This document shows positions 36,443-63,994 of a DNA stretch of 64,000 nt, one piece after another. The position numbers were made by a program, and so were the translations under genes. The notes beneath the pieces were generated by a model that was given only the letters and a program-made list of their open reading frames with translations, was not told the origin of the DNA and ran no database searches. Source of the DNA: Candidatus Iainarchaeum sp. (GTDB taxonomy: Archaea; Iainarchaeota; Iainarchaeia; Iainarchaeales; JAZDFD01); contig JAZDFD010000026.1 of NCBI GenBank assembly GCA_043808155.1, positions 19,817 to 83,816 on the forward strand. The letters run 5' to 3'. How positions within the stretch are numbered: the first letter of the stretch is position 1; each line of letters opens with the position of its first letter.

Positions 36443-36612
36443 GCACGGGTACCGAAGTGGTTAAACGGGACAGACTCAAAAAAACTTTTAGAAAAAGTTT
36501 TAGCAAAAGAAACTTTTCAGAAAAGTTTCATCAAAACTAAAGCTTTATCTTTATTGAATTTGAGAGATCTGTTGGCTTAGTGCCTCCGTAGGTTCGAATC
36601 CTGCCCCGTGCA
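36443..36612 (+). tRNA. tRNA-Leu(CAA), class II, with an 86-nt intron at the canonical 37/38 position (intron about 36481-36566)
   Basis: Hand-folded. Acceptor GCACGGG/CCCGTGC, anticodon stem ACAGA/TCTGT, loop CTCAAA|..|A, 15-nt variable arm, T arm GTAGG-TTCGAAT-CCTGC, discriminator A. The intron 3' end TTTGAG pairs with CTCAAA. No encoded CCA. Confidence 0.85.
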
Positions 36613-36709
36613 TAGCCGGTTTCGTCCGGCTGTACCGAGATATGTGCACTGTTGCTTTGTGCAACAGCGCAGTAATATTTTTCGGAAACTGTGTCATAGC
36701 AAAAAGCGT
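36613..36709 (+). ncRNA. conserved structured tRNA trailer module, copy T1
   Basis: UUCG-capped hairpin 36614-36631, the 12-mer CCGAGATATGTG at 36635-36646, hairpin GCACTGTTGC/GCAACAGCGC, GTAATAT, and TCGG closing on CCGA. About 87% identical to 63899-63994, with compensatory stem changes. Confidence 0.55.
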
Positions 36710-36775
36710 ACCCGATTTCTGCTTAGCAGAAATGGGCGCATTTCATCAGAGCTGAAATAGCGTGGCACCCGTACT

Positions 36776-36809
36776 CGCCGGACGTGACGGCGGAATCCTG
36801 CCCTGTACA
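36776..36809 (+). other. leader-type hairpin (L3) fused to a remnant of a tRNA 3' end
   Basis: CGCCG-GACGTGA-CGGCG is followed by GAATCCTGCCCTGTACA. That matches the tRNA-Leu 3' end GAATCCTGCCCCGTGCA (36596-36612) at 15 of 17 positions. No complete cloverleaf can be folded. Confidence 0.4.
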
Positions 36810-42115: not shown

Positions 42116-42379
42116 TCAAATTTTTCTTAACCATTGTAAATATTGTTTGTGGTTGCCTGCAAACATTATTCGTCTATTGTTATTTTGTTCTTCAAAACAA
42201 ATTCTGTGTTGCCCTGCTTCAACAACAAAAAAAGGGAATCCGTGTCTCAAATGTCTTGCAGTTTTTAATGTTTTAAGACTTTGGATTTTTTTCCATATTT
42301 TATGTTTTTCTGATTTGTCAAATTTTAAGAAAAATTTATCCCAACCCTCAACAAATTCTAAGTTAAACAAGTTAATCAC
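42116..42379 (-). CDS. RelE/ParE-superfamily-like toxin (TA pair 2)
   Basis: 87 aa. RHLRHGFPFF and NHKQYLQWLRKI are paralogous to the toxin at 36069-36329. Abuts the antitoxin gene. Confidence 0.65.
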   Translation of the reverse strand: MINLFNLEFVEGWDKFFLKFDKSEKHKIWKKIQSLKTLKTARHLRHGFPFFVVEAGQHRICFEEQNNNRRIMFAGNHKQYLQWLRKI

Positions 42380-42643
42380 TTAGAATCCATATTTTTTCTT
42401 TACACTTGCTTCGTTAAACACTTTGCGTTTCTTAGATTTGACATCTTTAGAAATTTTCTGCATTTTTTTCAGAGCAAGTTCATCTTCCAAATCCTTCAAA
42501 TCTTTAAATACTTTATATTTCTCTCCAAGTTCAAGAATACCAGCTCTAATAATTTCACTTTTATTTTTGTACAAACCGCTTTTAGAAAGCCTATCCAATA
42601 TCACTTCTTGACTTCCTTCAAGTCTAACCAGTGTTTCACTCAA
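42380..42643 (-). CDS. ribbon-helix-helix antitoxin (TA pair 2)
   Basis: 87 aa. TLVRLEGSQEVILDRLSKSGLYKNKSEIIRAGIL is an RHH pattern. Confidence 0.65.
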   Translation of the reverse strand: MSETLVRLEGSQEVILDRLSKSGLYKNKSEIIRAGILELGEKYKVFKDLKDLEDELALKKMQKISKDVKSKKRKVFNEASVKKKYGF

Positions 42644-42706
42644 AAATAATCACCTATCATAATGATATACAAAGAAATATTTAAAGATATCGATTCAAAA
42701 ATAAAA

Positions 42707-42790
42707 CGCAAGGGACGAGATTCGAACTCGCGCTTCCCGAAGGAAACGGGCTTAGCAGGCCCGCGCATTAAACCACTCTGCCACCCTTGC
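42707..42790 (-). tRNA. tRNA-Ser(GCT), class II, no intron
   Basis: Minus strand reads GCAAGGG TG GCAGAGTGGTTTAATGC G CGGGC CTGCTAA GCCCG TTTCCTTCGGGAAG(C) GCGAG TTCGAAT CTCGT CCCTTGC G. Confidence 0.9.
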
Positions 42791-42798
42791 ACAACCCG

Positions 42799-42926
42799 AT
42801 TGCGTACGGGTACTCCGCGTGCCATTTTCAATGGCACTGTCATCATTTCTGATTGCGTAGATTGGATCCGCAATTCCGCAATGCAATATGTGTGAGTTTT
42901 CGTTTGACTCAAACCCACGATAATAT
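42799..42926 (+). ncRNA. GC-rich structured region: three-way-junction-like fold (42799-42882) plus the fourth copy of the core hairpin module (42886-42926)
   Basis: ATTGCG occurs twice (42799, 42852) and CGCAAT twice (42869, 42877), giving nested helices. There is a 7-bp hairpin GTGCCAT/ATGGCAC. ATATGTGTGAGTTTTCGTTTGACTCAAACCCACGATAATAT is about 85% identical to the tRNA-Glu intron core. The strand is assigned by homology and is antisense to the tRNA-Ser leader. Confidence 0.4.
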
Positions 42927-42968
42927 ATCATAAATTAGAGAAACTAATATAAAACGCGCCTAAGCTTA

Positions 42969-53942: not shown

Positions 53943-54113
53943 GCCCCTGTAGTGTAGCGGCCAAGCATCCTGCCCTTTCAAACCCGCTTTCGAGCGGGTG
54001 GGCCGAGATATGTGTGTTATTTCGTTTTGACTCAATAACACGATAATATTTGAAATCATATCTTAGGCTTTCGAAGACAGGCGGTGACCCGGGTTCGAGT
54101 CCCGGCGGGGGCA
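53943..54113 (+). tRNA. tRNA-Glu(TTC) with a 98-nt intron at or near position 37/38 (about 53981-54078)
   Basis: Hand-folded. GCCCCTG TA GTGT AGCGGCCAA GCAT C CTGCC CTTTCA|intron|A GGCGG TGAC CCGGG TTCGAGT CCCGG CGGGGGC A. Exon CTTT pairs with intron GAAG, leaving a 3-nt ACA bulge at the 3' splice site (relaxed BHB). Confidence 0.85.
53983..54068 (+). ncRNA. conserved structured module, copy inside the tRNA-Glu intron
   Basis: CCCGCT-TTCG-AGCGGG hairpin (53983-53998), the 12-mer CCGAGATATGTG (54003-54014), hairpin GTGTTATT/AATAACAC, and CGATAATAT. Collinear with the tRNA-Leu and tRNA-Ala trailers. Confidence 0.55.
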
Positions 54114-63898: not shown

Positions 63899-63994
63899 AG
63901 TCCGGTTTCGACCGGACGTACCGAGATATGTGCACTGTTGCTTTGGCAACAGCGCGGTAATATATTTCGGAAACCGTGCCACAGCACAAAGCGT
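63899..63994 (+). ncRNA. conserved structured tRNA trailer module, copy T2
   Basis: GTCCGGT-TTCG-ACCGGAC (63900-63917), CCGAGATATGTG (63921-63932), the GCACTGTTGC/GCAACAGCGC hairpin, and GTAATAT..TCGG. Collinear with 36613-36709. Confidence 0.55.

Follow-up and report, generated by a model that had tools for sequence, protein, structure and literature searches.

The DNA immediately upstream of the tRNA-Ser(GCU) gene contains two tandem plus-strand copies, A and B, of a module of about 70 nt (R1) identified by cmsearch. These are probably old insertions of a small non-coding structured element between the tRNA-Ser promoter and the gene, and the inserted DNA would now encode a leader removed by RNase P. 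Since R1 is a scattered, mobile-like repeat, the tRNA-Ser locus would be a further such insertion rather than a gene for a special antisense RNA. The window, meaning the whole analysed stretch of 64,000 nucleotides, belongs to a genome of 1.08 Mb with 35% G+C and an archaeal 16S. In this 88%-complete assembly the gene is the sole GCU serine tRNA detected by ARAGORN. Coordinates of the features are collected in Table 1.

Table 1. Parts of the tRNA-Ser(GCU) site, copies at tRNA genes of related genomes and sites of a second repeat family. Positions refer to the window unless a contig is given.
Feature	Position	Strand	Basis or remark
tRNA-Ser(GCU) gene	42706..42791	-	ARAGORN; Rfam tRNA, 60 bits
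Copy A, compact truncated subtype	42792..42843	+	cmsearch, 34.6 bits
Copy A HP1 stem	42794-42798 with 42807-42811	+	loop ATTGCGTA at 42799-42806
Copy A linker CTCCGCG	loop bases 42801-42804 pair with 42816-42819	+
Copy A HP2 GTGCCA/TGGCAC	42819-42837	+	loop TTTTCAA; outer AT stem absent
Copy B, decayed HP1 region	42850..42885	+	sequence, model alignment, comparison with C12:37490
Copy B, model match	42862..42928	+	cmsearch, 40.5 bits on +, 2.8 on -
Copy B HP2 (intact), outer stem ATAT	42886-42889 with 42923-42926	+
Copy B HP2, inner stem	42892-42899 with 42911-42918	+	one A.C mismatch; long loop TCGTTTGACTC
TATA-like GTTTTATATTAG (candidate)	42944..42955	-	sequence; about 20 nt upstream of copy B tail in tRNA-sense direction
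Palindromic TTTAAA	42680..42685	.	position relative to gene starts; under-representation
tRNA-His, genome G037			antisense copy at 5' end; second full copy further upstream, as at tRNA-Ser site
tRNA-Ala, genome G014			antisense copy at 5' end and sense copy at 3' end
tRNA-Ser(GCU), genome G076			antisense G-C-variant full copy at 5' end
tRNA-Arg, genome G011			antisense copy at 5' end
tRNA-Ile, genome G060			antisense copy at 5' end
Second-family sites	36700-36790; C14:53244; C13:16433; C35:18428; C1:1-146; C1:86900-86990

A pattern search of the whole genome revealed a larger unit, of which the hairpin at 42886-42926, from which the preliminary description started, is the second arm. This unit is composed of a first hairpin HP1 (e.g. 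ACCCGATTTCGTACGGGT), a linker GCTCCGAnnTATGTG, a second hairpin HP2 and a tail CGGTAATAWT. HP1 is GC-rich and its loop pairs with the linker situated 3-4 nt downstream. HP2 is a bulged hairpin whose outer stem is AT-rich. Its stem is variable, its loop is either short, of the UUUUCAA type, or longer, and its length varies by about 10 nt among copies. An oligo-T run of at least 5 is found in about half of the scored copies. The hairpin had been likened to the core of the tRNA-Glu intron at about 85% identity, and the sequence there reads as quoted. Alignment with the core at 54009-54050 gave 35 identical positions in 42 columns, that is 83%; relative to the 41-nt copy it is 85%. The covariance-model alignment also reproduced the differences listed between the stems, namely U-A to G-C and A-U to U-A, both compensatory, and a single A.C mismatch at 42895/42915. 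The same hairpin core is also positioned 3' of tRNA-Leu (36640-36678) and of the rRNA-spacer tRNA-Ala (63926-63963).

The covariance model R1 was built from an alignment of 18 copies (A1), and the tRNA-Ser site was scored by a model built from 18 copies other than its own. The match of copy B has an E-value of 6e-10 within the 501 nt searched and 1.3e-6 against the whole genome. It is not a chance match, and the scores on the two strands settle its plus orientation as previously proposed. The position of the hairpin within the DNA encoding the tRNA-Ser leader was supported as well. The three-way-junction-like fold proposed to precede it lacks comparative support, as the region represents parts of the two tandem copies; 42792-42882 is not a junction of its own but includes the second, truncated copy (A) and the remnant of copy B. 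HP1 of copy A starts 1 nt from the tRNA-Ser 5' end, and the same compact subtype adjoins tRNA-His in G037 (locus L009, 638-698). In copy B the HP1 stem is gone while its loop motif ATTGCGTA is retained at 42852-42859, and the linker motif TCCGCAAT is present twice (42867-42874 and 42875-42882); the comparison copy at C12:37490 has the loop ATTGCGTA and the linker GTCCGCAAT. The nested helices described earlier thus correspond to HP2 of copy A and the remnant of copy B HP1, and the ATTGCG/CGCAAT pairings represent the loop-linker helix of the R1 family in its G-C form, with 6 bp in copy B. The local fold scarcely beats shuffled sequences (z -1.5 on the plus and -2.0 on the minus strand), so that folding energy fails to separate the strands.

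For 18 aligned copies RNAalifold predicted 19 pairs; compensatory changes occur in 10 of these, and one pair of the outer AT stem switches between UA and AU in 9 copies each. A larger alignment (A3) of 107 matches, drawn from the host and from further genomes of the order, shows covariation between the triplet xCG in the HP1 loop and the triplet CGx' in the linker. The x-x' pair is Watson-Crick in 69 of 69 distinct copies (UA 49, GC 13, CG 6, AU 1; none unpaired), these rows having been selected for an 8-nt loop and anchored on two invariant CG dinucleotides; since the rows were selected and the copies are mutually related, the three variant pair types may reflect few independent events. Invariant C-G and G-C pairs flank x-x', and the next pair outward is UA in 30 and UG in 25 copies. 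The whole structure is 87.5% paired. Shuffles give 68.9%, none of 500 attaining the observed value, and slid partners give 24-52%. The helix spans 3-6 bp and may represent either an H-type pseudoknot or a hairpin formed instead of HP1. Because HP1 forms this covarying helix, the element exceeds a mere palindrome. Copy A carries the G-C variant (loop UUGCG, linker CGCG), and copy B retains the loop ATTGCGTA with the linker CCGCAAT. U.G pairs at three positions speak for folding of the plus strand; no strand bias is seen among the well-covarying pairs. Rfam gave no match at E<=5-10 over the modules of the tRNA-Ser site and of seven loci that contain canonical copies. The internal loop (5' GU, 3' GRUA), inspected by eye, is without tandem G.A pairs, and readings as K-turn, C/D-box or H/ACA were therefore discarded. 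Coding potential was rejected by hand: short ORFs do exist on the reverse complement in the r-protein operon, but their frame varies between copies.

The host genome possesses 32-44 copies of R1 (44 matches at E<=1, about 40 copies), and 18 of them have HP1 directed towards the neighbouring gene end, at -4 to +9 nt from it. Among the sense copies, nine begin -2 to +3 nt from a tRNA 3' end and three begin at a stop codon. In antisense copies, HP1 is mostly situated 8-9 nt from the start codon, just before the Shine-Dalgarno site, and at tRNA-Ser it lies 1 nt from the 5' end. The antisense placement at tRNA-Ser, by which this copy had been set apart from three others, is therefore not unique to it; antisense copies whose HP1 lies against the beginning of the next gene form a whole class. 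Between closely spaced co-directional genes, 11 of 13 copies are antisense and 2 are sense. Antisense spacer copies include four in the r-protein operon and those of carA-carB, the pyruvate-oxidoreductase subunits (porD-porA) and the spacer before L10e. Four sense copies that need read-through, located in the tRNA-Glu intron, in the rRNA spacer, at tRNA-Ile before ileS and 84 nt before a gene, have T-runs of at most 3 after the tail. The other 24 scored copies show a median T-run of about 4.5, with 18 of the 24 reaching at least 4. These orientation and T-run counts are small, and the gene boundaries behind them are rough ORF calls. Archaeal RNA polymerase stops at oligo-T, and the sense orientation would hence be polar, so that only antisense copies would survive within transcription units. 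Within these small numbers, antisense orientation is the rule of the family wherever transcription must cross an element. Some copies form inverted doublets with the same end outward, for example the one at C2:2457-2547, which has a 14-nt repeat on its flanks.

Flanking direct repeats scoring 11-20 were found at 8 of 31 host-genome copies, while the control had a mean of 5.3 and a maximum of 10. The duplications are 11-22 bp and variable in length. At C31:6404, for instance, the repeat measures 17 nt and contains ATG and a Shine-Dalgarno site, and at C1:46025 a stretch of 20 nt from a tRNA-Arg 3' end is repeated. Such long duplications would permit entry into a tight gene junction with neither gene broken. 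In G018 a copy with its flanks forms a perfect 100-bp tandem duplication (L001, G018:C4, 700-920), in which the 14-nt CCCTCAGTCCGCCC occurs three times. At the tRNA-Ser site no target duplication was found (score 4), and we infer insertion there from the behaviour of the family. As for candidate mobilising enzymes, the Y1/RAYT transposase (PF01797) gave no match at E<=0.01 in the 88%-complete genome, control genomes giving matches, and Cas1 was not found in it either; both were set aside.

Conservation in relatives had been proposed beforehand as a check, and R1 matches were found in other genomes of the order, including a copy at tRNA-Ser(GCU) of G076. Positive genomes numbered 25 of 61 and 37 of 141 in two samples of the order, with 1-11 copies in each and 0-11 across genomes; none of 9 genomes of families f33-f36, the only families outside the order-level samples, had a match. 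Antisense copies adjoin tRNA 5' ends in six genomes of six families, namely the host (G000) and the five in Table 1. In G014, where both ends of the tRNA carry a copy, only linkers of about 6 nt are complementary, and a leader-trailer processing stem around the tRNA was dismissed. Among seven tRNA-Ser(GCU) genes of other genomes, a clear copy is present only in G076, with an A/T box directly upstream of it (locus L028) analogous to GTTTTATATTAG; two have a different structured leader, and in G041, G019, G034 and G043 no R1 copy was found at this gene. From this patchy presence at orthologous sites it follows that the position of the element turns over while the fold is kept. In 80 ftsZ-anchored metagenome loci (75-89% identity) tRNA-Ser and the copies are absent and tRNA-Asn is conserved beside ftsZ, so that ftsZ-anchored synteny was abandoned as a guide to the site. 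In G041 (L019), a duplicated tRNA 5' end (CTGCAGGGGTGGCAGA) is located about 75 nt upstream of tRNA-Ser(GCU), with a hairpin-rich spacer unmatched by R1.

As 1 nt separates HP1 from the tRNA, tRNA-Ser must be transcribed through both copies. The copies would have entered between the promoter and the mature 5' end, and they would thus be transcribed on the minus strand as their reverse complement. The transcript of leader and tRNA would start from the candidate TATA-like GTTTTATATTAG or from the promoter of an upstream small ORF. Its leader of about 135 nt would then be cut off by RNase P; RNase P RNA is present in the genome. One explanation for the antisense orientation being kept is that sense hairpins followed by a T-run would be polar. 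TTTAAA is under-represented in the window (65 occurrences, 114 expected from shuffles), and at other sites it precedes the starts of genes and tRNAs (43118, 43302, 43442, 53905) by about 25-40 nt; it is probably the TATA box of this organism. The TTTAAA near the tRNA-Ser 3' end is more likely the TATA box of the minus-strand ORF 42380-42643 than a plus-strand promoter as had been suggested, since the start of this ORF at 42643, 37 nt downstream on that strand, offers the simpler assignment. Just downstream of tRNA-Ser, two abutting ORFs of 87 aa (42116-42643, minus strand) resemble a small two-gene cassette. A Pfam search of the small ORFs neighbouring tRNA-Ser gave nothing above threshold.

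Besides the absence of a target duplication at the tRNA-Ser site and of a Y1 transposase or Cas1 match in the genome, two facts count against the insertion reading. Random insertion followed by selection leaves the exact abutment of HP1 and mature tRNA ends unexplained. In addition, the loops and the loop-linker helix are conserved over many families, and the selection on the fold thus indicated could equally reflect a host function. R1 might then be a host cis-acting RNA element at transcript boundaries, which insulates folding, guides or blocks RNase P, tRNase Z or exonucleases, or stabilises RNA, and the tRNA-Ser leader would be functional. This has a modest chance of being right. The conservation of fold and loop sequences across many families of the order agrees with it, as do the position of HP1 beside mature tRNA ends, both 5' and 3', and 8-9 nt ahead of start codons, the reappearance of the compact subtype at tRNA-His (G037) and of a G-C-variant full copy at tRNA-Ser(GCU) (G076), and the U.G pairs at three positions, which favour a single folded strand. 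However, copy number is very uneven (32-44 against 0-11) with a patchy distribution, orthologous sites are mostly empty, and with both orientations in use half of the copies would expose the conserved loops as their complement. The target duplications and the perfect tandem duplicates resemble insertion and amplification, and copy B has lost its HP1 stem. A related but rather unlikely possibility is a functional structured RNA, made of pseudoknot and hairpin, which is joined to or acts at exact mature tRNA and exon ends, either as exonuclease-blocking or processing punctuation or because it spreads via an RNA-level step tied to tRNA end processing.

The other two alternatives concern promoters. 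A plus-strand transcript driven by TTTAAA from near the tRNA-Ser 3' end, giving an RNA of antisense tRNA plus module, is highly improbable, even though the better-folding strand is the plus one by its U.G pairs and the palindromic TTTAAA could work both ways. This TTTAAA lies at promoter distance from the minus-strand ORF starting at 42643, and the antisense layout recurs with differing downstream DNA, so that such a promoter is no shared feature. Moreover, the single nucleotide between HP1 and the tRNA-Ser 5' end leaves no room for a promoter, and the minus strand is therefore read through the copies. It is also very unlikely that the AT-rich tail and outer stem (GGTAATAT / ATATTACC) serve as a portable TATA box supplying a promoter to the adjacent gene. 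A tail is situated 14-24 nt before tRNA-Pro(GGG), and A/T boxes stand beside the tails at tRNA-Ser here and in G076; yet the variation of about 10 nt in HP2 length leaves the spacing to the start site unfixed, the apparent TATA motif of the organism is TTTAAA, and the intron and rRNA-spacer copies require no promoter.

R1 shares features with known short repeats. Like REP, BIME and REPIN sequences, it is a short non-coding hairpin-forming intergenic repeat in tens of copies, found in both orientations, within operons and after genes, with some inverted doublets and mosaic hairpin types. R1 thus shows the short imperfect extragenic palindromes in many copies, some as inverted doublets, that are typical of REP and REPIN. 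It differs from them in that its host genome is without a RAYT/Y1 transposase match, in its 11-22-bp flanking duplications and covarying loop-linker helix, in exactly abutting mature tRNA ends and occurring in tRNA introns, and in having an archaeon as host. The resemblance with MITEs lies in small size, non-autonomy, flank duplications at 8 of 31 copies and a patchy occurrence with a burst in one genome. Single R1 modules are, however, without the usual terminal inverted repeats, their stem sequences vary while the fold is kept across families, and no related full-length IS was found, the search for mobilising genes covering Y1 transposase and Cas1. Target duplications of MITEs are usually 2-10 bp; those flanking R1 (11-22 bp) are longer and more variable. 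Transposed tRNA introns of Thermoproteales were reportedly described by Fujishima and colleagues in 2010. R1 shares with them the related sequences in several tRNA genes and the intron sequence at non-intron sites. In contrast to them, most R1 copies are outside tRNAs, in operon spacers, leaders, trailers and an rRNA spacer and in either orientation, and no bulge-helix-bulge motif of its own was seen to bound R1 in the tRNA-Glu intron, which was examined by eye. There the splice sites depend on exon-intron pairing and not on the module.

Taken alone, the locus is one more copy of a repeat, and it adds a reverse-orientation rule that is testable as terminator polarity. Across six families of the order, the precision at tRNA 5' ends equals that at 3' ends. 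If R1 were a functional RNA joined to or acting at mature ends, it would contribute directly to the origin of tRNA introns, long leaders and trailers in archaea. The literature searched yielded no account of such elements; if this gap holds, R1 represents a DPANN class of small DNA, mobile or structured, that is as yet uncharacterised, and a class of this kind would reshape tRNA leaders, trailers, introns and operon spacers.

A second repeat family was also observed, with the order CACGATTTC, hairpin, GAAATGTGCMCATTTC, hairpin and GAAATAG (sites in Table 1). Its modules occur on either side of tRNAs and are in many cases joined to an HP1 of the R1 type, which makes them mosaic. At tRNA-Leu(CAA), the 3' end GAATCCTGCCCCGTGCA (36596-36612) recurs as GAATCCTGCCCTGTACA at 36793-36809, and the 180 nt in between contain one plus-strand R1 copy and a reversed second-family module. 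With HP1-type hairpins facing outward at both ends, 36596-36809 resembles a composite insertion that duplicated 17 nt of the tRNA end. The 98-nt intron of this tRNA (36481-36560) is AT-rich, has AAACTTTT/AAAAGTTT inverted repeats and is unrelated to R1. The Leu-UAG, Glu-CUC and Ala-GGC tRNAs (C6:23441+, C6:35367+ and C1:92032-) are each followed by a hairpin cassette and then by a duplicate of their own 3'-terminal 17-26 nt.
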